Below are positions 145-13,333 of a stretch of 13,333 nucleotides of DNA, piece after piece (positions within the stretch are counted from its first letter, which is position 1; every line of letters starts with the position of its first letter). Below the pieces are notes generated by a model. It was not told the origin of the DNA, ran no database searches, and saw only the letters and a program-made list of their open reading frames with translations. The position numbers were made by a program, and so were the translations under genes. Source of the stretch: Armatimonadota bacterium (lineage in GTDB: Bacteria; Sysuimicrobiota; Sysuimicrobiia; Sysuimicrobiales; Humicultoraceae); the NCBI GenBank assembly GCA_037446215.1, contig JBBIJB010000062.1:1-13333 (forward strand). The letters run 5' to 3'.

Positions 145-170
145 CTGAGGCCCATAGGAGGCGGCCTCAG
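145..170 (-). terminator. 8-bp hairpin overlapping the stop codon, possible weak terminator
   Basis: CTGAGGCC (145-152) / GGCCTCAG (163-170); followed on the minus strand by CCGGUGUUUG, only a weak U tract. Confidence 0.4.
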
Positions 171-1435
171 AGGTTGCTCACCATGCGCAGCCAGACATAC
201 CCCCGGGAGGTCCCGACCGCCTCCCACGAGAGGAACTCGTTCATCCTGTACGTGACCGCTCCTTCGATCTCTCCGCTCTGCGGGGAGTAGGCGCCGCGCA
301 GCGTGAGGTCGGGCGAGAGCCGGTAGACGATGAACGGCTCCGCGCCCTCTCCGCTGAGCCGGCTGAGCACGCCCACCGACAGGTGGGTGCCTAGTTCCAG
401 CCTCACGCCCAGGGCCCAGCGCCACGCGAGGCTGGACGGGACCAGCGTCATCTCGACGAAGGGCTCCAGAGATCCGAATGCCCGGCCCACCTGGGCCCGG
501 ACGTCGGCGGGCGGGGCGTCGGCCCCGAAGTTCAGCCTGGCCTCCAGACGTGCCCGGTAGAGCGTTGACTCCGCGAGCAGCGTCAGGTTCGTCTGCTCCG
601 CCACCCTCAGCGTCGGACGAGCGACGATGCCGTACTCGATTGCCGGGGGATAGGCCTTCAGCCGCTCGGCGATCATCGCTTCCAGCTTCGCGCGGTGCGC
701 GGCGGCAAAGGCGACGGGCAGCCCCCTCAGCGGCTCGGCCATCGAGATCGCCTGAGGCGTGTGGCCGTCCAGCAGGAGCAGCGGCACCGAGCTCGACCTG
801 AACCTGACCCCGATGTCCCGGATGACCAGCGGATCCTTCGCGGTCACGCTTACGGCGAGCGCGCCCGGAGGATCGCCCGACAGGCGGGCGGCCGCGGTGA
901 AGCCGGGAGCCGCGGCCTCCACGAGCTCCCGAGCCCTGCTCTCCACCACGGGGAGGGCCCACTCAAGGGCGTCGAGCGGCAGCCTCACGAGCAGGCCTCG
1001 CATCTGTGGTATGGACGGCTCCAGGACCGCGGCGACGAGGGGCCGCGCCTCGGGGTGGATCCCCTGATAGGCAAAGGTGACCGGCAGCTCGCCCAGTACC
1101 GGGTGGCGCGGCTGGAGTGCTACCGAGACCGCCGTGACCGCTCCCGCGGAGAACCGTATGGCCGCGACCGTGTATCCCCACACCACGCGGTTCACGACGT
1201 CCCGAAGAACCCCTGCCAGTGCCGTCTCCTGCCTCGCGACGAGCTCGATCTCCCTGCCGACGAGCAGGCGCTCTCCCGCGGCGGCGATCGTCTCCGCGAC
1301 GCGGCGGACCACCAGAGGGTGGGGTTCCCCGCCCTCGAACGAGATGCGGATCTCCACGCGCCGCACCGGCTCGGCGGCGCGCGTGGGCACAGCGGTTCCG
1401 AGCAGCATGACGACAAGCAGCGCCGGAACCAGCAC
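167..1435 (-). CDS. Uncharacterised exported/outer membrane protein: three POTRA-like repeats plus a C-terminal beta-strand-rich domain
   Basis: 422-aa ORF 35 nt after the bamA stop, with natural protein composition. Signal-peptide-like N-terminus (…TAVPTRA/AE), three ~88-aa beta-alpha-alpha-beta-beta units, about 10 amphipathic strands ending YVWLRMVSNL. Start is uncertain (possibly CTG at 1498). Confidence 0.8.
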   Translation of the reverse strand: MLVPALLVVMLLGTAVPTRAAEPVRRVEIRISFEGGEPHPLVVRRVAETIAAAGERLLVGREIELVARQETALAGVLRDVVNRVVWGYTVAAIRFSAGAVTAVSVALQPRHPVLGELPVTFAYQGIHPEARPLVAAVLEPSIPQMRGLLVRLPLDALEWALPVVESRARELVEAAAPGFTAAARLSGDPPGALAVSVTAKDPLVIRDIGVRFRSSSVPLLLLDGHTPQAISMAEPLRGLPVAFAAAHRAKLEAMIAERLKAYPPAIEYGIVARPTLRVAEQTNLTLLAESTLYRARLEARLNFGADAPPADVRAQVGRAFGSLEPFVEMTLVPSSLAWRWALGVRLELGTHLSVGVLSRLSGEGAEPFIVYRLSPDLTLRGAYSPQSGEIEGAVTYRMNEFLSWEAVGTSRGYVWLRMVSNL

Positions 1436-1470: not shown

Positions 1471-3348
1471 CTAGAAGGGATGTCCTATGCTGATCCAGGT
1501 CTGCGTGCCCTCCGAGCCGATGGCGTAGTCGATGCGGATCGGACCCACCGGGGTCTTGACGCTGATGCCCGCGCCGTAGCCGAGCAGGATCGACGAGGAG
1601 ATAGGCGCGCTTCCCACGTCAACGTAGAGGATCCCGACGAACTCCTTGAGCATGGTCGCCAGTCCGCCCAGAGGTACGCGGGTCTCGAGGTTCACGAGCC
1701 CGAAGGTCGGCTGGCGCAGATATCCAAACGGATAGGCCCGCAGCGATGACGGCCCCCCCAGCGTGAAGAGCTCGTGGTAGGGCAGGGTGCCGTGGCTGAA
1801 CCCGACGGCGGCGCGGCCTACAAGTGTGAACGAGCCCGCGGGGATGTAGCGGGTGTACTCCAGGTAGTACTTGCCGAAGCTGAAGTCGCTCCCTATGAGC
1901 GGAAGGGCCAGATCGATCGACGCTCCGAAACGCTCACCCTTCGTGGGGCTGGTGCGGCTGTCGCGGGAGTCCCGAACACCCGAGAGCTGGAGCGACACCG
2001 TCCTTCCCGACGTGATGTAGGTGGGCGGCGGCTTGGGGCAGGCCGGATCGTCGGGATCGGTGTCGCATGGGGGGACGGTCGGGTCGACCGGAAGCAGGTC
2101 GACCAGCGCTCGCTCGCTCTTCAGCTTGAGGGCGGCATGGGTGATGGGGTCGATCGGTCGCGTCAAGGCGATCGAGCTGCCCAACCTGTTGAGATGGAAT
2201 CGCGAGACGATAGTCTTGTCCGCCGCGTACTCGGTCTCGGTTGAGTTCGCCTCGTAGAGGGACGCTTCAAGCGCAGTACCGCGCGCGTCCAGCCACGGCT
2301 TGCGGTAGGTGATCGAGAAGTTGCTGGCCACCGGCGCGGTCAGGGAGGGCACGTTTCGGTCGCCGAGCCCGCGCTCGTACCTGACCGAGAGTTGCTCGAG
2401 GCGTCCCTTCCAGTTCTTCTCCGTGTACTCCAGCATCCCGACGATTCCTGTGCGCTCGCTGTAGCCCAGCGCGAAGCGGGCCTGCTGGGAGGGCTGCTCC
2501 TTGACCTCTATCTCGACGATGACCTGGTCGGGAGACGACCCGGGGAGAGGGCGGGCCTGGATGCTCTCGAACAGCTCCAGGTTGAATATCCGCTGCAGGT
2601 CGGCGTTGAGCTCGTTCACGTTGAAGACGCGTCCCGGCACTACGACCGCCCCGCGGTCCAGCACGTAGCGTTGGGTCTTGACGACGCCCTTGTACTGCAC
2701 CGCCTCCACCCGGCCCTCGTTTATCCGAACCCGCAGCCTGGCGTTGACGTCGCCGGTCACGCCGACGTCGGCTATGCGCGCCAATACGAACCCACGTTCC
2801 TCGTAGAGCTTCTCCACCGCGCGGGCGCCGTCGCGAAGGCGGATCACGTTGAGCACCTGCCCGACCGGCACGTTGAGGGCCGTGACTATCTCCGGGGTGT
2901 TGATCACCGTGTTGCCCTCGACCGAGATCTGCGCGATCGGGGGGTTCTCAACGACGAGGAAGACGACCCGCACGCCGTCCCTGTAGGGCTCTATTCGCAC
3001 GTTGGCGTCGGCAAACCAACCCGTGGCCACCACCGCGGCCAGATCTGCTCGCAGCCGCTCGTCCGAGAGCAGCTCCCCGGTGCGCACGCCGACCGAGTCG
3101 AGGACCACGGAGACGGGCACCCGTTCGAGCCCGCGCACGGCGACGTCCGTTATCTTGGGCGTGGGCGTAGGAGAAGGAGCCGGCGCCGCGGGTGACGGCG
3201 TAGCGGTGGGTCCCGGGGTCGGCTGCGGAGCCGGAGCCCCCCAGGCGGCAGGTGAGAGCGTCGCAAGGATCAGGGCTCCCAGAGCCGCCCAGGCGATCGT
3301 CGTCCTTCGATACGCCGCGCTACGGGGAGATCGCGAAAGGTGGTGCAA
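1471..3348 (-). CDS. bamA: BamA/TamA (Omp85) family outer membrane protein assembly factor with three POTRA domains
   Basis: TTG start behind AAGGAGG; signal peptide; three POTRA starts (ITDVAVRGLERV, IAQISVEGNTVI, VEAVQYKGVVKT); barrel motifs EKNWKGR, YRKPWL, RDSRDSRTSPTKG, FTLGGPSSLRAY, GAGISVKTPVGPIRIDYA; C-terminal ISIGHPF. Confidence 0.93.
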   Translation of the reverse strand: MHHLSRSPRSAAYRRTTIAWAALGALILATLSPAAWGAPAPQPTPGPTATPSPAAPAPSPTPTPKITDVAVRGLERVPVSVVLDSVGVRTGELLSDERLRADLAAVVATGWFADANVRIEPYRDGVRVVFLVVENPPIAQISVEGNTVINTPEIVTALNVPVGQVLNVIRLRDGARAVEKLYEERGFVLARIADVGVTGDVNARLRVRINEGRVEAVQYKGVVKTQRYVLDRGAVVVPGRVFNVNELNADLQRIFNLELFESIQARPLPGSSPDQVIVEIEVKEQPSQQARFALGYSERTGIVGMLEYTEKNWKGRLEQLSVRYERGLGDRNVPSLTAPVASNFSITYRKPWLDARGTALEASLYEANSTETEYAADKTIVSRFHLNRLGSSIALTRPIDPITHAALKLKSERALVDLLPVDPTVPPCDTDPDDPACPKPPPTYITSGRTVSLQLSGVRDSRDSRTSPTKGERFGASIDLALPLIGSDFSFGKYYLEYTRYIPAGSFTLVGRAAVGFSHGTLPYHELFTLGGPSSLRAYPFGYLRQPTFGLVNLETRVPLGGLATMLKEFVGILYVDVGSAPISSSILLGYGAGISVKTPVGPIRIDYAIGSEGTQTWISIGHPF

Positions 3349-3486: not shown

Positions 3487-4158
3487 CTACTGACCGGCCG
3501 ACCTCCGCAGGGAGCGTTCCGCGGCCAGCACCAGGTCGATCACGTCGGCCTCGCTCAGCAGCGGGGCCTGCGCGGCTGACGGCTGCGGCGCGGCCGGCAC
3601 GGGCGCCGGCGCGGGGACGGCTCCTGCCGGAGCGTGCGGCGCAACCGCTGTCGCCTTCAGGATCGGGGCGGGACCCGGAGGGCGCGCGGCCTCGGTGAGC
3701 GCCCGTGCCGCGGCCGGCGGCGAAACCGCGGCCCTCGGGGCGTAGACGATTACCCGGACCTTTGGCGCCTGCGGAGTCGGGGCTTGCGCCGTCACCATCT
3801 TGAGCACGGACCCGCTCCCGCCCTCCAGCCGCACTACCGCCGGGGCACCATCGCCGACTTTGGCAAGGGGCGCTCGGAGGTGCGGCAGCGGGAGCAGCAG
3901 CAAGGCGGCCACGCCGGCCGCCAGGAAGAGCGCGGCCAGTGGGAGCGCGTAGCGCGGTGCGTCTTGCGGGGATCCTGCGTCGCTCGATCCCGAAGCCGCC
4001 AGGCTCTCTTCCCTGGCCCGCGCCACCTCCGCCCCGGCTAGCAGCAGGGTCAGCGCGCTCTTGCCGGGATCGCCGCTCTCAAGCTGATGCCTGGCACGAT
4101 CCAGCCACCTCTCGGCCAGCTCGACTCGCTCAACCAGCTTTTCGGGTCGCTCATTCAT
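3487..4158 (-). CDS. Hypothetical single-pass membrane protein (candidate anti-sigma factor)
   Basis: ATG at 4158 behind GAGGGA, 27 nt after the sigma stop. Charged helical N-terminus, one hydrophobic segment (YALPLAALFLAAGVAALLLLPLP), Pro/Ala-rich linker, C-terminal amphipathic helix LLSEADVIDLVLAAERSLRRS. Confidence 0.75.
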   Translation of the reverse strand: MNERPEKLVERVELAERWLDRARHQLESGDPGKSALTLLLAGAEVARAREESLAASGSSDAGSPQDAPRYALPLAALFLAAGVAALLLLPLPHLRAPLAKVGDGAPAVVRLEGGSGSVLKMVTAQAPTPQAPKVRVIVYAPRAAVSPPAAARALTEAARPPGPAPILKATAVAPHAPAGAVPAPAPVPAAPQPSAAQAPLLSEADVIDLVLAAERSLRRSAGQ

Positions 4159-4185
4159 GGAAGATCCCTCACCCACGTCACAGTC

Positions 4186-4869
4186 CTAATATCCGGAGGC
4201 GTGCCGTGGCTGGTGCATCGGCTCCAGGCCCAGGATCGTCCTGAGGCGGGTGGTCGCCTGCTTCTGCAGCCTGTAGAAGTGGGACAGGCTGATGTGGAGC
4301 TCGCGGGCGATCGTGCGGGCTTCCCTGGAAGCAACCACCGCCTCCATGACGGCCCTCTCGCGGGGCGGCAGCCGCCGGATCGCGGCGAGGGCGGACTCGA
4401 CCACCGAGCGGTCCTCGACGCCCCCTATCTCGGCCGCGGCGGCGGGATCGGCAAGGGATGCCAGGGGCGACAGGTCTTCCGCGGTGCCGATAACCTGGTC
4501 GAGCGAAACCTCAACCTTTACGCGATCCAGCGCGTTGAGAACGCGCCCCCTTATCCGATAGGTGGCGAAGGTAGGGAAGCGAACCTGCCGGCCCGGGTCG
4601 AAGCGCTCGACGGCCTCGATGAGCCCGACGGCTCCCTCCTGGATCAAGTCCATCAGGAGGGGCTCCGGGGGCCTCATCTGCATCACGATCTTGAAAACGA
4701 GCGGCTGGTAGGCCTCGATCAGCCGCAGCCGGCTCTCCGCGCTGCCGGCCAGCCTGTATTCGCCCCAGAGGGCGGCCTCCTGCTCGGGGCGGAGCAGCTC
4801 AACCTTCTGCAGCTCTCGAAGGTAGTCGGCGAGTGACGCAGGGGTTCCGGCGCGGCGCCAGCGCATCAT
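4186..4869 (-). CDS. RNA polymerase sigma-70 family factor, group 3-like (FliA/WhiG/SigD-type region 2)
   Basis: Region 1.2-like LADYLRELQKVELLRPEQE; region 2 DLIQEGAVGLIEAVERFDPGRQVRFPTFATYRIRG; region 4 LPPRERAV...IARELHISLSHFYRLQKQATTRLR. Start could be 4869 or 4866. Confidence 0.93.
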   Translation of the reverse strand: MMRWRRAGTPASLADYLRELQKVELLRPEQEAALWGEYRLAGSAESRLRLIEAYQPLVFKIVMQMRPPEPLLMDLIQEGAVGLIEAVERFDPGRQVRFPTFATYRIRGRVLNALDRVKVEVSLDQVIGTAEDLSPLASLADPAAAAEIGGVEDRSVVESALAAIRRLPPRERAVMEAVVASREARTIARELHISLSHFYRLQKQATTRLRTILGLEPMHQPRHASGY

Positions 4870-4947: not shown

Positions 4948-7900
4948 TCAGAACCGCGCGGTGTACCAGAGGACCGCCTCGCGGAAGCCCGCGGAGTCTA
5001 TCCGGAGCGAGAACTGCCACTGCCTTGCGAACCGGTACTCCAGCGCCCAGAGGTAGCGCGTCTTCTCCTCGAAGGTCGTCGTCAGCGTGAGGTAGAGCTC
5101 CGGGAACAGCGCCTTTCCCAGTCGCAGGGCCAGCGGCCCCTTGAAGTCGTACTCGACCACGAACTCGCTCAGCCCTATCGCCTTCCCGAGAGCCAGGCTG
5201 ATCTGCCCGAACAGGATCCTGCCGAGCTCGGTCCCGATCGCTCCGGCCACGTCGCCGCCAAGCAACCGGGTTATGCTGGCCTGCCGTCCCAGCAGCCCCA
5301 CGATCTCGGCCCTGGGGAGATCGGGGTCGGAGCGAAGGTCCAGCGTTAGGGCATCGGGCGGTGTGCCGCGGACCGTGAGAAACACCTGCGTGGCGCCCAC
5401 CCTGGTCTCGGCGGTGGCTGCGACCGTCGGGTAGATCCCCATGTGCGGAGAGAAGACCGCGGTTCCCTCGCGTAGGTCGAAGGAGGTGCCCAGCGCGACG
5501 ATCGTCCCCTGCTGCGCCGCGATGCTCCCTTCCAGCGTGGGGCTGCGCAGCGTTCCCACCAACTCCACGGCTCCACCCGGCCGGATGTCGAGCTTGAACC
5601 CGCCGACCCTGGCCGACAGGTTGCTGCCCGCTTCCAGCGACAGCCCCCGGAAGGCGAGCCTGGAGGAGGCGGCCGGCGATGCGCCCGTGCCGGGGGAGAC
5701 GATGACCGCGCCGTCGGCGAGGAGGAGGTGCCCCTCCACCGTCACGGGTCGGCGTCCGTCCGCCAGGCTCCCACGGAGCTTCAGCGTGCCGGTGGCGTGA
5801 AGGTCTATCATGGGGGGGACCACCACCCTCGCGCTTGTCGCGCGGAGGGAGAGCGGTGCCTCGTCGGAGATGCTGAGCGCGAGCCCGCTCGTGGGGTGCG
5901 CAACGACGCGGGCCGCACCCTCGAGCCTGACCGTGCCCGCGCCCATCCTGGCGCTGCCCTCGGCCACCCGGATCGTGGAGTCCTCGAAGCGAACGTCGAG
6001 CCTGAGGGACTCGATCGGCGTCTGGACGCCCCGTAGCCGGAGCAGACCGTCCTGGATCCTTATGCCGCCTGTCAGATGGGGAGACGCCACGGTGCCGTCG
6101 ATCAGCAGGGCGCCCTCGACCGCCCCCCTCCCCTCCACTATCTGATCCGAGGCAAGCCGCAGGAGGCCGAGGTTCACGTCGGCGAGCGTGAGGCGAAGAT
6201 CGATCGGGCGCCGCTCGTCGAAGCGAAGGAGCGCCGGGTTGAAGGGAAGGCTCCCGACGGCCCGGAGCTTGTGGCCGTCCTGCACGAGCAGGGCGTGCTG
6301 GATCTGCAGCAGTCCATCCTTGTAGAACGCGTTCGCGATGAGCGCGTCGAAGGTGGCCCCGGCAATCCCGCCCTTGGTGACATCGAGGGCAAAACCGATC
6401 TCCGGAGCGGCCAGCGTCCCTCCCATCTGCGTGGTGAAGTTGAGCCGGCCGACCAGCGGCCGTCGCAGGCGCATGGCGGACCTCAACAGGTCCATGTCCA
6501 GGTCGCTGCCGCCGACCTCTATCTGGCTCTCGCCCCTCAGGTTCAGCCGGCCGGTCGCCGCGACACGGCCGGTCGCCGGCAGTATCTCGAAGCTCTCGAT
6601 CGATACGGTCCCTTCTCGGAGCGCCAGGTTCACCCGTCCCCCGAGGAGCGGATAGTCCCCGAGGCGCCCGCTGTCCATCCGAAGGTCGATCCTGGCCGAC
6701 GGGTTCGCGATGGGGCCGACGGCTGAGAGCTCACCGGAGATCCGCCCCTCTACGGGCACACCGGGCCTGATGTTTCCGACGGCCAGAAGCGTCGAGATGC
6801 GGCCCTCCTCGGCGGTCAGGCTCAGGTTGATCGGGTGAGACGCTGCCAGCGAGATCTCCCCGGCCAGGCGGTACCGCTCGTCCCCTGCGCGCAGCGATAG
6901 GGGTTCGAGGCGCAGCGTCCGTGCCTCGAACCGGGCCTGGACCGACGCCTCGTCGAATCGCCGTCCGTTCACAACGAGATCCGGGGAGACCGCGCTCAGC
7001 GCGATCGAAGGCGACTCCGGGCGGCCGGTGATCCGGCCGGTGATCTCCACCCGGCCCTCCAGCCCGACAGGGCTTCCTCCGACCACCGCTATGTCACGAA
7101 GGTGGATGGAGCTGCCCGAGAGGCTCAGCCTGAGACCGGCCCGCCTGTCGTATGTGCCGGCGACGCCGAGGAGGGAGCCGCCGGTGCGCAGATTGGAGTC
7201 GTCCACTGCCAGGACAGCACCGTCCCAGCGGAACACGGCCTCTGCCCTCTCGATGGGCTGCCCGAACGCCGCGCCGTCGCGCACCGTCAGGCTTCCCGAC
7301 GCGGTGGGCCGGGCAGGGGTGCCTCCGACCGCCACCCGACCCTCAACGGTGCCGGAGAGCGCCTCGGGCAGCCCGAGCAGCCGGCCGAGCGTGGAGACCG
7401 AGCCACGATCGAGGCTGACGTCGAGAGCCAGGCGTGATGAGGGCCGGAGTGGGATCGTCCCCGAGATCTGGAACCGGGAGAAGCCCTGGCGCAGAGCCGC
7501 GCTTTCGAGCACCAGGCCGCTCCGACCGGCACGCAGTGAGCTCCTTGCCGAGTCGATCGGGAGGTCGCCGAGACGCCCTCCGAAGAGATGGACCTCACCG
7601 GCGAGGGCGGGATCCGCGATCGATCCCGACACGGTTCCCGAGAACCCTACGCGTCCGGTCGGAGCGCCGAACCCGGCCGGAAGCGGCAGCGCCGCCAGGT
7701 CGATCTCGCCTGCCTCCACCCGAAGCCCCAGCCCGCCCGGACCGGTCAGCCTTCCGGCCGCGACGGCCCAGGCCGCGCCGCGCCTGAGCCTCAGATCGTG
7801 AAGCAGCAGGCCGCTCCGGCTCGAGGTGAAGGTCGCCGTGGCCGTATCGAACGCCTCGCCGGCCAGACGGGCATCGGAGGCGACCACCATGCCCGTCACC

Positions 7901-9336
7901 GACAGCCCGCTGGGGGTCCTGAGCAGGGCAACCGCCCCGTCCAGCCGCCCGGCCACCCGGGGCAAAGACGCGCCCGACGCCGCCGCCACCGTCGCGGCAT
8001 CGGCATCGTCGAACCTCAGGGTGAGGAACTGGTGGCCCGCGGCCAGGCTTCCCCAGGCGCTGCCCGAGAGTGTCGCCCCCTCGAGTTGACCACTGAATCT
8101 GTCGAGGCTGAAAGCTCCCCCCAACAGCGAGAACTCGGCGGCTATGCCCTCGAAGCCGTAGCCGTCTATGCGGCCGCGGGCGGTGGCGAGACGCCCCTCG
8201 ATCTCGGGAGACCGAAGGGAGCCCACGATGCGCACGTCTCCGGAGGCGACCCCGGCCAGCCGGTGGGCCGCGCTGGGGAAGAGGAGCCTCGCGAGCATCC
8301 TGAGGTCTACGCCCTTCGAGCGCGCCACTATGTCTCCGCTGGGCTCTCGAGCCAGGACGACCTCCCCGGCCACCTCCAGGGGCGAGCCGTTCAGTCGTCC
8401 TGTCAGGCCCTGCGAACGCAGCCGCCGGCCTAAGACGCGGAGGTCCCCGGTGACGCCGTCGACGACGATGCGCTGCGCCGGCACCGAGGCACGCCCTCCC
8501 CTCACCTTGATCAGCCCGAAGACGTCTGTGGTCGATCGGCCGGCGCGCCGGATGGTCAGGATGTGGATCGCCGCGTCGAAACGGCCGGCCGAGATGACGA
8601 ACCGCGGCGTGTTGAAGAGGTAGTGCCCCCAGGCGGCCGCGTCGCTCCCCATAACGGCGAGGTCAAGGTCCAGGATCCTGGTTGGGAGGTGGTATGCCCC
8701 GCGCACCTCCACGGGCTCCCTGGCTCCGCCCCGCTCCTCGACCGCGGCGCCCTGGAACTCGATCCTCCCGGCCGTACCGAAGTCGGCCGAGCCGGAGAGG
8801 CCGAGCAGGTGCGCTTCGAAGCTGTCCGGGGCCAGTCTGCGGTGGTCCGAGAACCTCACCACCCCGCCCTTGACGACCACGCTGCCGCGGAACGCGCCCG
8901 CCGCCTGTGGTCCCGCGGTGCGGGAGAGGAGTGAGGTCACGTTCCAGACCCCGGCGGGGTCGCGGCTCAGGGTGAGGACGGGATCTTCCAGGATGACCCG
9001 CTCGATGCCGCCTCCAACCCCGCGCCTTGACAACGCCTCCCTCGCGAGGCGCAGCAGGTCGGCGCGCAGGGTGATTCTACGCGCGACCAGCAGGGGGCTG
9101 GAGGAGCCGGGCAAATCGGCGAGCACGACGTCCTCCAGCACGAGGCCGCTGCGTAGCCCGCCATGGACGCGGGCCACCTCGACCTTGCGCCCGAGCCCCG
9201 CGGAGAGGACAACGGCGGTCAGGTCAGCGATCCGCGAGGAGAGCGACACGACGGCCCATGCCGCGGCCCCGGCCGTTACGGCCGCCGCGACAACTATCGC
9301 TATCGATGTCGTCAGTCGACGCCTGCCCGACCGCAA
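4948..9336 (-). CDS. tamB: Translocation and assembly module TamB (AsmA-like, DUF490 C-terminus)
   Basis: 1462 aa; TTG start behind AGGAGGAGAGG; N-terminal membrane anchor; many Gly-rich amphipathic beta repeats with G-T/S-x-x-x-P-x-L-x-G motifs; DUF490-like LDLRSDPDLPRAEIVGLL; ends in amphipathic strands ...WYTARF; close to an Omp85 gene. Confidence 0.9.
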   Translation of the reverse strand: MRSGRRRLTTSIAIVVAAAVTAGAAAWAVVSLSSRIADLTAVVLSAGLGRKVEVARVHGGLRSGLVLEDVVLADLPGSSSPLLVARRITLRADLLRLAREALSRRGVGGGIERVILEDPVLTLSRDPAGVWNVTSLLSRTAGPQAAGAFRGSVVVKGGVVRFSDHRRLAPDSFEAHLLGLSGSADFGTAGRIEFQGAAVEERGGAREPVEVRGAYHLPTRILDLDLAVMGSDAAAWGHYLFNTPRFVISAGRFDAAIHILTIRRAGRSTTDVFGLIKVRGGRASVPAQRIVVDGVTGDLRVLGRRLRSQGLTGRLNGSPLEVAGEVVLAREPSGDIVARSKGVDLRMLARLLFPSAAHRLAGVASGDVRIVGSLRSPEIEGRLATARGRIDGYGFEGIAAEFSLLGGAFSLDRFSGQLEGATLSGSAWGSLAAGHQFLTLRFDDADAATVAAASGASLPRVAGRLDGAVALLRTPSGLSVTGMVVASDARLAGEAFDTATATFTSSRSGLLLHDLRLRRGAAWAVAAGRLTGPGGLGLRVEAGEIDLAALPLPAGFGAPTGRVGFSGTVSGSIADPALAGEVHLFGGRLGDLPIDSARSSLRAGRSGLVLESAALRQGFSRFQISGTIPLRPSSRLALDVSLDRGSVSTLGRLLGLPEALSGTVEGRVAVGGTPARPTASGSLTVRDGAAFGQPIERAEAVFRWDGAVLAVDDSNLRTGGSLLGVAGTYDRRAGLRLSLSGSSIHLRDIAVVGGSPVGLEGRVEITGRITGRPESPSIALSAVSPDLVVNGRRFDEASVQARFEARTLRLEPLSLRAGDERYRLAGEISLAASHPINLSLTAEEGRISTLLAVGNIRPGVPVEGRISGELSAVGPIANPSARIDLRMDSGRLGDYPLLGGRVNLALREGTVSIESFEILPATGRVAATGRLNLRGESQIEVGGSDLDMDLLRSAMRLRRPLVGRLNFTTQMGGTLAAPEIGFALDVTKGGIAGATFDALIANAFYKDGLLQIQHALLVQDGHKLRAVGSLPFNPALLRFDERRPIDLRLTLADVNLGLLRLASDQIVEGRGAVEGALLIDGTVASPHLTGGIRIQDGLLRLRGVQTPIESLRLDVRFEDSTIRVAEGSARMGAGTVRLEGAARVVAHPTSGLALSISDEAPLSLRATSARVVVPPMIDLHATGTLKLRGSLADGRRPVTVEGHLLLADGAVIVSPGTGASPAASSRLAFRGLSLEAGSNLSARVGGFKLDIRPGGAVELVGTLRSPTLEGSIAAQQGTIVALGTSFDLREGTAVFSPHMGIYPTVAATAETRVGATQVFLTVRGTPPDALTLDLRSDPDLPRAEIVGLLGRQASITRLLGGDVAGAIGTELGRILFGQISLALGKAIGLSEFVVEYDFKGPLALRLGKALFPELYLTLTTTFEEKTRYLWALEYRFARQWQFSLRIDSAGFREAVLWYTARF

Positions 9337-9388: not shown

Positions 9389-11173
9389 CTATCGCACTAC
9401 GATGGGTATCCGCTCAGACCCCTGAATCACCCAGTCGGTCCGCGCGGCGCGCAGGGCCTGCACGTCGAACTGCGTGAAGTCGGTCTGCGTGGTCGGAAGC
9501 CCGAAGGGCAGGATCCTGACCAGGATATCGGTGTTCCGACCGAAGTTCTCGAATATCGCGAGCGCGTCTTCCAGGTCGCCTATTCCCCAGGGCTCGGGCT
9601 CCGAGGAGAGTGCCCTGGCGAGCTTGGCCTCGACCGGGACCTCGGGCTCGTCGATCCCGGCCGACCGCACGACAACCACCGCCGGGCCCCTGGGGAAGTT
9701 GCCCGGGACGTGAACCTCGATGTTCCTGGTGACCCGCCTCTCGGCAAGGTGAGGTTGCATGGTCACCCGCAGGCGGAGCGTCCCGCCCGGCCTGATCTCC
9801 CGCGACTCGATCTCCACCCCCACGATCACGGCGGTCTTCCGAGCGCGCGAGATCGACGTCTCGACGGTGAGATCGAGCGGCTCCAAGCGGCGCAGCTCGT
9901 TGTAGAAAGCGAGATCGATCGCGTCGATTATCTCCAGGACGGAGGCGGTGGCGACGTCGCGCGTGCTGAAGAAGACGTTCTCACGCACGATAGGGGAGGG
10001 CAGTCCTTTTGCCCGGAGCGTGGTCCGCACCGTGGCGGTTCCCTCTCCGCCGCCCTGGCTGCGGGCCCGCTCGATGGCCGAGAGCGCCACGAGCGGCGCA
10101 AACAGCCGGGCCATGTCCCGCCGCCGGACCATCTGGGCCCCCAACTGGACCCGGTCGCCCGACTCCTCGTCGGTCACCATGACCCGGATGTTGAACAGGC
10201 GCGGCAGCTGCCCCAGGGTGCCGGCAATCGCGCCGCTCCTGTCCTGGTCGACTATCCCTATCATAGCCCCCAGGTTGCCCACCTTGAACGGGCGCGGCAT
10301 CGTGCGCACCACGGTGACGATCTCCGAGGCCGTCATGACGTACTCCACGTCGCCTAGGTTGTCCCAGGGGTGCCCGCACACCAGCACCCTGTTCCCGACG
10401 CGGACGGTCACGGTGCATATCCCCCCGAAGTCGATGTCGCCCCGGACCTGCTGTATCCCCACTGAGCTGCCCGCGGCAACCGGGGCCGCGGCGAAGTCGC
10501 CCCGACCGCCGTGGCCCTGGAGGAGCTCGTGGCCCATCGGCTTCAGCATGTCAGAGAGGATGCGGGAGGCGCGCGGCGTCAGCCCGCGCGCGAACGCGGC
10601 GACCGCGGGCGTCGCCACCGCGAGCCCGTCGGACCGCATCCGTGCCAGCAGCGCGACCTGTTGCGGGGTTGCGGCGATCGCGAACCTGTCGAACTCCCCC
10701 CCGCCGATAGCGACCGGCCGGGAAGAGCGGTAGAGCGGCATGCCCACTCCTCCGGACCGGCGCCGGTCCAGGAGCTTCAACATCTCCTCGATCGGCGTCG
10801 CCAAGGCGATGTCGCGCTTGGGCGCCTGCCAGGTGAATGAGGCGCTCAGCGCGCCGATCAACCTTCCGCCGATGTACATTGGGCTTCCGCTCATTCCGGC
10901 GGCGGTGCCGCCGGTCTGCTCGGCCAGCGGGCCGAACATCCGGAACAGGATGAGACGGTCGACTCCTACCGGTCCTCCTCCTGCCTGCAGGATGTCCACG
11001 ATCTCGAACTGGAACTCCTCGATGCGCTGGCCCTGGACCACCGTCCGCCCTACGCCGCGCATCCCCGGCCGTATCTCGGAGAGCGTCATGATCGAGGGGC
11101 CCTGCTGCGGGGCGCCGGCCACCGGGGCTGCCAGCAGGAGCACCAAGATGAGAACCCTGAGGCGACTGGCCAC
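9389..11173 (-). CDS. Exported SpoIVB peptidase S55 domain-containing serine protease
   Basis: Start reassigned to GTG at 11173 behind an AGGGAGGGAG RBS; signal peptide MASRLRVLILVLLLAAPVAGA. SpoIVB-type motifs AAGMSGSPMYIGGRLIGALS (GMSGSP at 10880-10897) and CTVT...LVCGHP (GHP at 10367-10375); beta-rich C-terminal domain. Confidence 0.88.
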   Translation of the reverse strand: MASRLRVLILVLLLAAPVAGAPQQGPSIMTLSEIRPGMRGVGRTVVQGQRIEEFQFEIVDILQAGGGPVGVDRLILFRMFGPLAEQTGGTAAGMSGSPMYIGGRLIGALSASFTWQAPKRDIALATPIEEMLKLLDRRRSGGVGMPLYRSSRPVAIGGGEFDRFAIAATPQQVALLARMRSDGLAVATPAVAAFARGLTPRASRILSDMLKPMGHELLQGHGGRGDFAAAPVAAGSSVGIQQVRGDIDFGGICTVTVRVGNRVLVCGHPWDNLGDVEYVMTASEIVTVVRTMPRPFKVGNLGAMIGIVDQDRSGAIAGTLGQLPRLFNIRVMVTDEESGDRVQLGAQMVRRRDMARLFAPLVALSAIERARSQGGGEGTATVRTTLRAKGLPSPIVRENVFFSTRDVATASVLEIIDAIDLAFYNELRRLEPLDLTVETSISRARKTAVIVGVEIESREIRPGGTLRLRVTMQPHLAERRVTRNIEVHVPGNFPRGPAVVVVRSAGIDEPEVPVEAKLARALSSEPEPWGIGDLEDALAIFENFGRNTDILVRILPFGLPTTQTDFTQFDVQALRAARTDWVIQGSERIPIVVR

Positions 11174-11210
11174 TGCGACTCCCTCCCTAACTAGCGCGGC
11201 ATAACTAACG

Positions 11211-11245
11211 CGCACAGCCGTCGGGATGATCCCGTCGCCTGTGCG
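11211..11245 (-). terminator. Imperfect 14-bp hairpin, possible terminator/attenuator or mRNA-stabilising stem
   Basis: cgcacag-c-cg-t-cggga-tga-tcccg-t-cg-c-ctgtgcg; on the minus strand it is followed by CGUUAGUUAU. Confidence 0.5.
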
Positions 11246-11276
11246 TGAGCCCGATAGAGCGTGTTCGTACCTGTAC

Positions 11277-11588
11277 CTACCTGGGTTCCAGGCGGACCAC
11301 AACCGTCCCAAGCTCTCTGATGACCGTGCCCGCCGAAACCAGGACCTCCAGGACGCGGCCGTCCACGGTGGCCCTGGCGGCAACCGCGCGGCCGGTCGCG
11401 GTCCGTACGTAGAGGAGCGGCTCGCCCTCGGCCACGCCGTCACCCGGCTTGACGAGCCCCTCGGCCAGGACCTCTCCCATCAGGGTGGCCTTCACTTCTA
11501 CCGGCTGTCTGGGCGCCGCGAGGGAAGAGGCGGCGGCGAAAGCGACGGCCGCTGCCACAAGAATCGCAACCGGAACCCGCAGGCGCAC
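11277..11588 (-). CDS. Small exported biotinyl/lipoyl-like (barrel-sandwich hybrid) domain protein lacking the attachment lysine
   Basis: Start reassigned to GTG at 11588 behind a GGAGGAGAGG RBS (ORF track starts at 11642). Signal peptide MRLRVPVAILVAAAVAFAAASSLA; the pattern G-V-x-x-x-L-VKPGDGVAEGEPLLYV...ATVDGRVLEVLVSAG matches the lipoyl/biotinyl fold. Confidence 0.75.
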   Translation of the reverse strand: MRLRVPVAILVAAAVAFAAASSLAAPRQPVEVKATLMGEVLAEGLVKPGDGVAEGEPLLYVRTATGRAVAARATVDGRVLEVLVSAGTVIRELGTVVVRLEPR

Positions 11589-11695: not shown

Positions 11696-12859
11696 TCAGG
11701 GGGCGAACTCCCCAGGCCGCTCCTGCGGGAACCCGAGGAAGCGGGCGACCTCCGCCGCGATCCTCGAGGCGGCGTGCCCGTCCCCGTAGGGGCTGCGGGC
11801 GGTGGCCATCGCCGCGTGGGCCGCTGGGTCCCGGAGGAGGCGCGCGGCTCGCTCGACGATCCTCTCCCGCGACGTTCCGACCACCTCGACCACGCCCGCC
11901 TCGACTCCCTCAGGCCGCTCGGTGACCTCTCGCAGGACCAGCACCGGCACCCCGAGGGAGGGAGCCTCCTCCTGGACGCCTCCTGAGTCAGTGAGGATGA
12001 TGTGCGCCGCCGCCATCAGACGGACGAAGGGCCCGTAGTCAGGGGGGTCTATCAGGTGCGCCCTGGCGTGCCCTCCGAGGACCTCCTCGGCCACGCCGCG
12101 CACGGCCGGGTTGGGGTGGACCGAGAAGACCACGACGGTGTCGGGAAACCTCTCAAGCAGGTCGCGCAGCGCCAGATAGACCTGCCGGAGGGGTTCGCCC
12201 CAGCTCTCCCTTCGGTGGGTGGTGACCACCAGGAGGCGCCGACCCTCCAGAGGGGGCAAGCCTGCGGGCAGCCCCACCTCGGGCCTGCCCGCGACGTCGA
12301 GCAGCGCGTCGATTACCGTGTTTCCGGTCACGAGGACCCTATCGGCGGGCACGCCTTCCCCCAGCAGGTTGTCCCTGGCGCCGGGCGTGGGCGGGAAGTG
12401 CAGGTCGGCCAGCACCGAGGTGAGGCGCCGGTTGATCTCCTCGGGGAAGGGCCGATACCTGTCGTGTGTGCGCAGCCCGGCCTCCACGTGGCCGACCGGG
12501 ATCCGGAAGTAGAAGGCCGACAGAGCGCCGAGCATCGTGGAGAGGGCGTCTCCCTGGACCAGGACCATCGCGGGGTGCATCTCCGAGAGCACTGGGGCAA
12601 GCCCGGAGAGCGCCCTCGTGGAGATGTCGAACAGTGACTGCTCGTGCAGCATTATGTCCAGGTCGCGGTCCGGGGTGATCGCGAAGAGCCGCAGCACCTG
12701 GTCCAGCATCTCGCGGTGCTGGCCTGTAACGACGATCTGGGGCCGGAGATACGGACTCTCCCTCAGGCGCGCCGCCACCGGGGCCATCTTGACGGCCTCC
12801 GGCCGGGTGCCGAATATCAGCATGATCGGAGCGCGGGGATCCGCCCCGGGGCCGCTCAC
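11696..12859 (-). CDS. wecB: UDP-N-acetylglucosamine 2-epimerase (non-hydrolysing)
   Basis: Motifs IFGTRPEAVKMAP, TGQHREML, VQGD, GHVEAGLRT, PFPEEINR, TGNTVIDAL, TDSGGVQEEAPSLG, TERPEG, PYGDGHA. The GTG start overlaps the upstream stop (GTGA, 12856-12859). Confidence 0.97.
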   Translation of the reverse strand: MSGPGADPRAPIMLIFGTRPEAVKMAPVAARLRESPYLRPQIVVTGQHREMLDQVLRLFAITPDRDLDIMLHEQSLFDISTRALSGLAPVLSEMHPAMVLVQGDALSTMLGALSAFYFRIPVGHVEAGLRTHDRYRPFPEEINRRLTSVLADLHFPPTPGARDNLLGEGVPADRVLVTGNTVIDALLDVAGRPEVGLPAGLPPLEGRRLLVVTTHRRESWGEPLRQVYLALRDLLERFPDTVVVFSVHPNPAVRGVAEEVLGGHARAHLIDPPDYGPFVRLMAAAHIILTDSGGVQEEAPSLGVPVLVLREVTERPEGVEAGVVEVVGTSRERIVERAARLLRDPAAHAAMATARSPYGDGHAASRIAAEVARFLGFPQERPGEFAP

Positions 12860-13333
12860 CTCGGCAGCAGCCCCATCCGCCTGGCCGTCACCAGGAGCAC
12901 CCCGGCGATCACGCCTAGCGTCCAGATCGACGCGGAGCGGTTCACACCGGCGAGCGCCAGTGCCCCGAACCCGAGCAGGGCGCTGATCATGTAGAGGATG
13001 AAGACGGTCTGCCGCTGCGTGAGGCCCCTGTCGAGGAGCCTGTGGTGGAGGTGCCCTCGATCGGGAAGGAAGATGGCACGACCGCTCCTGAACCGCCTGA
13101 GTATGGCGAACGCCGTATCGGCTATCGGCACTCCCAGCGCGAGGATCGGCACCGCGAGCGATATCATCGTGTAGGACTTGTAGAGGCCCATGACCGAGAG
13201 TCCCCCCAGCACGTAGCCGAGGAACATCGATCCGGAGTCGCCCATGAAGATGCGCGCGGGGTTGAAGTTGTGGCGCAGGAACCCGAGCGCGCTCCCCACC
13301 AGCGCCGCGGCGAGGAGCACCGCGGCCGCGTCG
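12856..13333 (-). CDS. tagO: MraY/WecA/TagO family (glycosyltransferase family 4) undecaprenyl-phosphate GlcNAc-1-phosphate transferase, C-terminal part; 5' end lies outside the window
   Basis: Hydrophobic multi-pass protein with the family motifs HNFNPARIFMGDSGSMFLG and DRGHLHHRLL. The frame stays open to the window edge and the gene is directly upstream of wecB. Confidence 0.92.
   Translation of the reverse strand, partial: DAAAVLLAAALVGSALGFLRHNFNPARIFMGDSGSMFLGYVLGGLSVMGLYKSYTMISLAVPILALGVPIADTAFAILRRFRSGRAIFLPDRGHLHHRLLDRGLTQRQTVFILYMISALLGFGALALAGVNRSASIWTLGVIAGVLLVTARRMGLLPR

Follow-up and report, generated by a model that had tools for sequence, protein, structure and literature searches.

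We analyzed a 13,333-nt contig of Candidatus Sysuimicrobiota (formerly CSP1-3), deposited as Armatimonadota bacterium (GenBank assembly GCA_037446215.1, contig JBBIJB010000062.1), over its whole length, hereafter the window. The G+C content of the window is approximately 70 %, and all of its long open reading frames (ORFs) lie on the minus strand. Directly downstream of bamA, the window encodes a 422-aa protein (167..1435 (-)), hereafter the SonA-like protein, which probably resides in the outer membrane and combines three POTRA domains with a small beta-barrel of ten strands. It is very probably an ortholog of SonA, which is encoded in the bamA operon of two-membraned Firmicutes (Negativicutes) and was first reported in 2026 (PMC13018214, Nat Commun, February 2026). 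We favor the interpretation that the protein is the SonA ortholog of Ca. Sysuimicrobiota and serves as an auxiliary of outer-membrane protein biogenesis anchored in the outer membrane. The architecture and the operon are already known as of 2026, and what is new is their presence, with a collinear envelope block, in a second phylum. The initial annotation had called the protein uncharacterised and perhaps lineage-specific. Neither description can be kept, since the same architecture and operon position have been published as SonA (PMC13018214), and full-length homologs of the protein are found among named proteins of Negativicutes.

The sonA-like gene starts with a GTG codon 35 nt past the stop codon of bamA, contains no internal stops and ends with a stop codon at 167-169. 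Residues 1-20 (1376..1435 (-)) form a putative signal peptide with a hydrophobic helix at residues 2-13, modeled with a low predicted local distance difference test score (pLDDT). Cleavage would occur after T-R-A, as deduced by the -3/-1 rule rather than by a predictor, and the N-termini of relatives have the classical n-region, h-region and AxA motif. Three alignments were used: A1, consisting of 63 homologs; A2, which is wider; and A3, consisting of 35 sequences from related loci. The full-length AlphaFold2 model based on A1 (mean pLDDT 93.1, predicted template modeling score 0.79) comprises the N-terminal hydrophobic helix, three beta-alpha-alpha-beta-beta units and ten strands. No Pfam (E<=0.01) or NCBIfam family was found in the protein, and neither PF01103 nor PF07244 matched it. 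A sequence profile search of the PDB returned a single match (E 1.5), and the ESM Atlas returned only unnamed clusters resembling the query and a weak lipocalin-like match.

The three units lie where the initial annotation had placed POTRA-like repeats of approximately 88 aa with the order strand-helix-helix-strand-strand, starting at residues 25, 114 and 205, and the modeled strands and helices fall within residues 26-109, 119-199 and 207-290. Domain 1 covers residues 24-110 (1106..1366 (-)) and begins RRVEIRISFEG at residue 25. Domain 2 covers residues 113-200 (836..1099 (-)), begins LGELPVTFAYQG at residue 114, and contains an invariant W159 and an L-P-x-x-A-x-x-W motif. Domain 3 covers residues 203-291 (563..829 (-)), begins IRDIGVRFRSSS at residue 205 and is the most conserved part of the protein (IRDIGVRFRSSSIP, EPLRGLPV, ADS), with a two-residue linker to the barrel. 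Units 1 and 2 are related at the profile level (hhalign probability 95.6 %, E 1.1e-8, 86 columns), and unit 3 showed no detectable sequence kinship to either of them by hhalign (E 0.02-0.07). Units 1 and 2 are recognisably duplicated, and unit 3 has diverged beyond detection. The repeats and strands are therefore beyond chance, as indicated by the similarity of units 1 and 2 and by conservation of the protein, which has homologs in 120 clusters (90 % identity) and 277 representatives (50 % identity). An internal leucine motif had been reported for every unit; the alignment consensus confirms an L-x-G-L-P-V-like motif for units 2 and 3 and shows a looser version of it in unit 1.

When the whole model was compared with the PDB using Foldseek, 86 chains were found at E<=1e-3, and the matches listed were all chains of BamA, TamA or the TOC complex. 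This list was possibly driven by the barrel, and residues 22-292 were therefore folded alone using A3 (AlphaFold2 pLDDT 95.6). Foldseek found 69 chains at E<=1e-3 with this N-terminal part, and the matches listed (E 2e-7 to 4e-5, probability 0.92-1.00) were all POTRA-bearing BamA, TamA, TOC or cyanobacterial Omp85 proteins, that is, members of the Omp85 family, as expected from the proposed POTRA fold. The alignments spanned all three units (~280-310 columns). The top match of the POTRA arm in VIA was TamA (Z 7.1, 217 aligned), and single domains matched POTRA1 of TamA (Z 6.1, rmsd 3.5, 82 aligned) and POTRA4 of Haemophilus influenzae BamA (Z 5.5, rmsd 3.1, 75 of 87). Because Foldseek and VIA match POTRA proteins, whereas the Pfam POTRA model matches only BamA in this genome, the repeats are POTRA domains by predicted fold and form a separate sequence family. 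The POTRA fold is shared with the TpsB proteins FhaC and CdiB (CdiB, Z 5.0-5.2) and with FtsQ/DivIB (FtsQ, Z 5.3). Unlike the SonA-like protein, however, TpsB proteins form barrels of 16 strands with a plug helix, FtsQ acts in division at the inner membrane, and neither is encoded in a bamA-skp operon.

The protein can be compared with BamA, TamA and Toc75 (Omp85; PF01103 and PF07244), which are its top structural matches. Like them, it has tandem N-terminal POTRA domains followed directly by a C-terminal beta-barrel, and it shares an operon with BamA. Unlike them, it has ten strands instead of sixteen and lacks the L6 loop, a conserved VRG(F/Y) motif, Pfam matches to either domain and profile similarity to BamA of its phylum. 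The absence of (V/L)RG(F/Y) had been pointed out before, and no conserved VRG(F/Y) motif was found in the alignment of the family; an RGY is present at residues 411-413, the last position of which varies among family members. The earlier proposal of a distinct class of POTRA-barrel protein is thus borne out by the missing PF01103 and PF07244 matches, the strand number, the profile comparisons and the genetic tie to bamA, tamB and skp. We also considered whether the protein is a recent truncated paralog of BamA. The A1 profile was compared with the neighboring BamA, and each unit and the barrel were compared with a 35-row alignment of BamA from the phylum (best E 0.13-0.38). Since there was no profile match to BamA, Pfam or PDB sequences, this idea was dropped.

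The ten-strand barrel occupies residues 293-422 (170..559 (-)) and ends W-L-R-M-V-S-N-L-COOH. Its DSSP strands are located at residues 293-303, 311-318, 323-332, 337-348, 352-359, 365-374, 377-384, 389-397, 402-409 and 414-421. All ten strand strings that the initial annotation had listed from position 559 down to 167 fall on these strands, residue 293 corresponding to nucleotide 559. The loops are short on both sides in the AlphaFold2 model. The best VIA match of the barrel was the designed transmembrane barrel TMB10_163 (8uzl; Z 12.7, rmsd 3.1, 129 aligned), followed by a Legionella porin (Z 12.3), KdgM (12.0) and NanC (11.2), and the best matches were membrane barrels (Z 12.7-10.6). The barrel geometry thus resembles that of KdgM and NanC (12 strands) and of TMB10_163 (Z 11-12.7, rmsd ~3 A, 124-129 residues). 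These proteins, unlike the SonA-like protein, have no periplasmic domain, and the channels of KdgM and NanC are open and their loops longer. Sequence identity to these small outer-membrane barrels amounts to 11-14 %, and nothing points to a shared ancestry.

The strand positions of the barrel alternate strictly. The hydrophobic face comprises 46 positions, of which 0 % in A1 and 5 % in A2 are charged and 17-24 % are aromatic, and the other face is 37-40 % charged. Aromatic residues of the hydrophobic face lie at one strand end (Y293, Y346, Y371, Y396 and W404) and at the other (F303, W340, Y358, Y383 and F390), resembling the two aromatic girdles of outer-membrane proteins. Most of the invariant or near-invariant barrel residues belong to the polar face (R296, E298, N302, G317, E324, G343, E391, R397, E405, R417 and N421). 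When the VIA matches were labeled as membrane or soluble from their entry titles, the 28 membrane barrels had a higher mean identity in structural alignments (9.6 %) than the 21 soluble ones (5.7 %; Mann-Whitney p 1.3e-6), as expected if the polar face points inward. The C-terminal consensus of the family is W-L-R-L-[IV]-[GS]-x-[LF]-COOH. The last residue is hydrophobic in 318/318 full-length members, namely L in 177 and F in 125 (together 302/318) and I, M, W, V or A in 16. Because of these indirect tests of the barrel and the published data on the homolog of Acetonema longum, we consider it highly likely that the protein is embedded in the membrane.

SonA of A. longum (UniProt F7NM22, WP_004097360.1) consists of 426 aa, and its gene order is sonB-bamA-sonA-skp1 (PMC13018214). 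The SonA-like protein is similar in size (422 aa) and shares with SonA a predicted Sec signal peptide, three beta-alpha-alpha-beta-beta POTRA domains and a ten-strand barrel. Further, its gene is located between bamA and skp, with a small gene for a transmembrane-helix protein upstream of bamA and with tamB and lpx genes nearby, and, as for sonA, it is missing from some members of its clade without loss of bamA. In contrast to SonA, it is a predicted protein and belongs to Ca. Sysuimicrobiota rather than Firmicutes; it is approximately 26 % identical to the named Negativicutes relatives compared. A BLASTP comparison with a Selenomonas ruminantium protein aligned residues 17-422 with residues 20-430 (E 1e-34, 26 % identity), and A1 aligned with a Propionispora protein over 405 columns (hhalign probability 100 %, E 1e-43). 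The distant relative P0152 matched the A1 profile (E 4.5e-57), and its named relatives are from Selenomonas, Mitsuokella, Selenomonadaceae and Propionispora. A Negativicutes-like metagenome contig (L070) encodes a 433-aa homolog at the equivalent operon position, which is similar over the full length (E 1e-32). Orthology to SonA is very probable because architecture, size, gene order and sequence all agree. In the passages of a 2016 eLife paper on hypothetical proteins of the cluster, there is no description of a protein of this type.

The relatives of the protein formed 120 clusters at 90 % identity, none of which had a Pfam domain. A profile search of 1.84 billion representatives (50 % identity) detected 277 proteins at E<=1e-3 and 219 at 1e-10. 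Full-length members have approximately 410-470 aa, and neither a longer nor a 16-strand form was present among the 150 matches listed. A homolog search with A2 mostly recovered close relatives again and no newly named ones. Distant relatives in two clusters were labeled only 'Firmicutes bacterium' and, in one case, as a 'Patescibacteria group bacterium' MAG. Several members from Selenomonadaceae (P0307, P0314, P0324 and P0213) carry the NCBI label acylphosphatase. Because Pfam found nothing in the Negativicutes-type relatives P0152 and P0390, this label looks like a misannotation of the beta-alpha-alpha-beta-beta units.

The position directly after bamA, which the initial annotation had noted, is conserved. 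Among 44 public related loci, bamA was directly upstream of the sonA-like gene in 39/40 loci with an upstream flank, and an OmpH/Skp gene was downstream in 42/42 loci with a downstream flank (37/38 and 40/40, respectively, when L013 and L043 are left out). The full order, as seen in the relative L009, is tamB-sigma-229aa-bamA-sonA-like-skp-skp-skp-lpxD-(508aa)-lpxC. The Negativicutes-like contig L070 has the order tamB-sigma-213aa-bamA-homolog(433 aa)-skp-352aa-skp-lpxD-...-lpxC. Thus, the gene is genetically tied to bamA, tamB and skp. The sole locus lacking bamA upstream is L035 (1-2816), in which the 123-aa upstream frame is unlike BamA and an extra 141-aa ORF lies between the sonA-like gene and skp; this may reflect a rearrangement or a chimeric 3.9-kb contig.

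Within Ca. Sysuimicrobiota, the wide profile A2 detected the protein in 54/94 genomes. By family, it was found in 32/33 genomes of f1, 19/22 of f2, 1/1 of f6, 1/1 of f7, 0/23 of f4, 0/12 of f5 and 0/1 of f3; without the unpublished genomes G015 and G024, which are included in these tallies, the numbers are 52/92 overall and 30/31 in f1. In three genomes of f4 and f5 (G028, G032 and G036; loci L080, L081 and L082), bamA is followed directly by skp with gaps of approximately 60-165 nt and no trace of the sonA-like gene. The clusters of these genomes are otherwise intact, except that G036 also lacks the sigma and 229-aa genes, and its tamB abuts bamA. Because whole families lose the gene cleanly, the protein is not essential to BamA function.

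These results are consistent with the following role. The protein would be made from a common transcription unit with BamA and the Skp chaperones and exported by Sec. Its last 130 residues would then form a closed transmembrane barrel of ten strands in the outer membrane, with very short loops on both sides and a lumen filled by a conserved network of Arg, Glu and Asn, and the barrel would hold the three-POTRA arm in the periplasm. Most likely, the protein would be a non-essential auxiliary of outer-membrane protein biogenesis, that is, a second POTRA platform beside the three-POTRA BamA; the participation of Skp or TamB in such a role is conceivable. The fold, family, synteny and phyletic pattern were determined here, and the location in the outer membrane and insertion into liposomes are in print for the homolog. 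SonA was detected in outer-membrane fractions and was protected from trypsin after incubation with liposomes, and Negativicutes are described as lacking BamB-E (PMC13018214).

Several points weigh against this reading. Co-immunoprecipitation of BamA identified no partners (PMC13018214), and orthology follows from the named Negativicutes relatives, architecture, size and gene order rather than from the A. longum sequence. The protein is dispensable in nature, being absent by profile search from 36/36 genomes of f3, f4 and f5. VIA Z-scores of the POTRA part do not exceed 7.1, which is below the caution line of the tool (8), and POTRA proteins make up 23/50 listed entries by title; the rest are Tctex, SPFH and baseplate alpha/beta sandwiches, which interleave at Z 5-6.6. 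The Pfam POTRA and Omp85 models miss the protein, a genome-wide search with PF07244 found the three domains of BamA only, and the hhalign profile of the protein showed no similarity to BamA of the phylum. As for the barrel, soluble ten-strand barrels (nitrobindin, Rv2717c and RsfG) reached Z 10.3-10.6, trailing the best membrane barrels by approximately 2 at most. In A1, the polar face is barely more conserved than the hydrophobic one (entropy 1.30 vs 1.68, p 0.054), and no difference was found in the wider A2; face conservation was therefore not relied on. The putative inward and outward directions of the two faces are deduced from indirect sequence patterns.

As an alternative, the protein may be an outer-membrane receptor of TamB, analogous to TamA, in which the three POTRA domains dock the C-terminal DUF490 part of TamB independently of BamA. 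The conserved cluster includes tamB in both phyla, four genes upstream of the sonA-like gene, and the genome, which is 91 % complete, contains bamA as the only PF01103/Omp85 gene found and no TamA. Further, TamA, which also has three POTRA domains, is the top VIA match of the POTRA arm, and the authors of the SonA study raised possible interactions with TamB (PMC13018214). Nevertheless, the f4 and f5 genomes keep tamB and bamA yet lack the protein. Judging from the title of PDB 9xdc ('TamAB hybrid barrel state'), a filled ten-strand barrel probably could not take up the end of TamB as the 16-strand TamA would. Nothing positive was obtained for a contact between the two proteins. Co-folding of residues 22-422 with the C-terminal 363 residues of TamB gave a score of 0.00 in two runs without controls, which counts neither for nor against contact. 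We regard a TamB receptor as unlikely.

Somewhat less probable still is an autonomous 'pioneer' insertase or membrane primer, which would insert itself into a naive membrane and start outer-membrane biogenesis, as proposed for spore germination of A. longum (PMC13018214). In line with that model, SonA and BamA enter liposomes spontaneously at 30 C, expression of sonA increases during germination, and small barrels with short loops fold unaided (PMC13018214). However, the presence of SonA is not correlated with sporulation (PMC13018214), and the papers on the phylum Sysuimicrobiota that were searched contain no words starting with 'spor', including 'sporulation'. The protein also has neither the lateral gate nor the L6 typical of an Omp85 insertase. 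A soluble periplasmic ten-strand barrel of the lipocalin, fatty acid-binding protein or nitrobindin type, carrying a lipid or lipoprotein and targeted to BamA by the POTRA arm, is very improbable: the Z-scores of soluble barrels, the uniformly short loops, an alternating pattern that also fits a hydrophobic interior and the lipocalin-like domain of the nearest Pfam-bearing ESM Atlas cluster (weak score, 0.78) would allow it, but the A. longum homolog was recovered in the outer-membrane fraction and was protected in liposomes (PMC13018214), and the barrel has aromatic rings at both strand ends, a hydrophobic C-terminal residue, invariant Gly, Arg and Glu on its polar face and higher identity to membrane than to soluble barrels.

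SonA had been reported from Negativicutes only, in the context of spore germination. Taking the protein as the SonA ortholog, the SonA family is older and wider than 'diderm Firmicutes', and the locus supports the remark in the SonA paper that SonA has a role not bound to sporulation. The locus is also further evidence for a diderm organization of Sysuimicrobiota, with lipopolysaccharide and a Firmicute-like envelope locus; the terms 'outer membrane', diderm, BamA, lipopolysaccharide and Gram-negative were not found in the papers on the phylum that were searched. We tentatively suggest, as a possibility that we hold to be less likely than not, that a SonA-type 'mini-Omp85' and the entire collinear block tamB-sigma-sonB-bamA-sonA-skp-lpxD already existed before Firmicutes and Sysuimicrobiota diverged. 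SonA might then be an ancestral second outer-membrane subunit of the BAM/TAM of Terrabacteria (Bacillati), which replaced the BamB-E lipoproteins, docked complexes of Skp with clients or TamB, and was repeatedly lost. The phylum offers natural contrasts of presence and absence, with three families in which bamA abuts skp without the sonA-like gene. Orthologs from hot springs, the models of which are very confident, may be good subjects for structural studies.

The other genes of the window are described from the sonA-like gene upstream. The bamA gene (1471-3348 (-)) encodes an Omp85 protein of 625 aa with PF01103 (E 3e-32) and three PF07244 POTRA matches. Upstream of it, at the position of sonB, lies a 229-aa gene (3487-4176 (-)), the product of which has an N-terminal helix, one transmembrane helix, a Pro/Ala-rich tail and no cysteine. 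No Pfam or NCBIfam family was found in this protein; its N-terminal 50 aa resemble those of the equivalent gene of L070 (E 7e-7), and the position is kept in most related loci. The next gene (4186-4869 (-)), located between tamB and the sonB-position gene, encodes a sigma-70 family factor (PF04542, E 8.9e-17; TIGR02937, E 5.9e-23), and a sigma-70 family gene has the equivalent position in L070. The sonB-position gene is always downstream of such a sigma-70 family gene (window, 3487-4869; L070, 3564-4921). By position, the sonB-position genes may be homologs of SonB. Because it has no cysteine, the protein encoded here cannot be a lipoprotein; since the sigma-70 gene always precedes it, the pair resembles a sigma/anti-sigma pair rather than an 'outer-membrane lipoprotein' and its neighbor. 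The tamB gene (4948-9336 (-)) encodes 1462 aa with a C-terminal PF04357 (DUF490 end; E 1.1e-40).

Downstream in the related loci, an ORF of 508 aa with no Pfam family is located between lpxD and lpxC in 17/44 loci by tblastn (5235-6761 (-) in L009). In 11 other loci lpxC directly follows lpxD, and the remaining loci are too short to tell. The middle skp of L009 (8293-9426 (-)) encodes 377 aa, of which only the last ~120 residues form the OmpH domain; the long N-terminal part has no family, and L070 has a 352-aa gene without family at this position.

Directly upstream of tamB in the window, a 684-aa protein is encoded (9389-11443 (-)). It has a marginal match to SpoIVB/peptidase S55 (26.5 bits against a cut-off of 25) covering residues 120-204 only, an unexpected match given that sporulation is not mentioned in the papers on the phylum. 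The first gene in transcription order is wecB (11696-13333 (-)), as identified by Pfam and NCBIfam. Its frame of 545 aa is open to the end of the contig, and the epimerase domain begins only at frame residue 189; thus, either the N-terminus is greatly extended or translation actually begins with the GTG at 12859.

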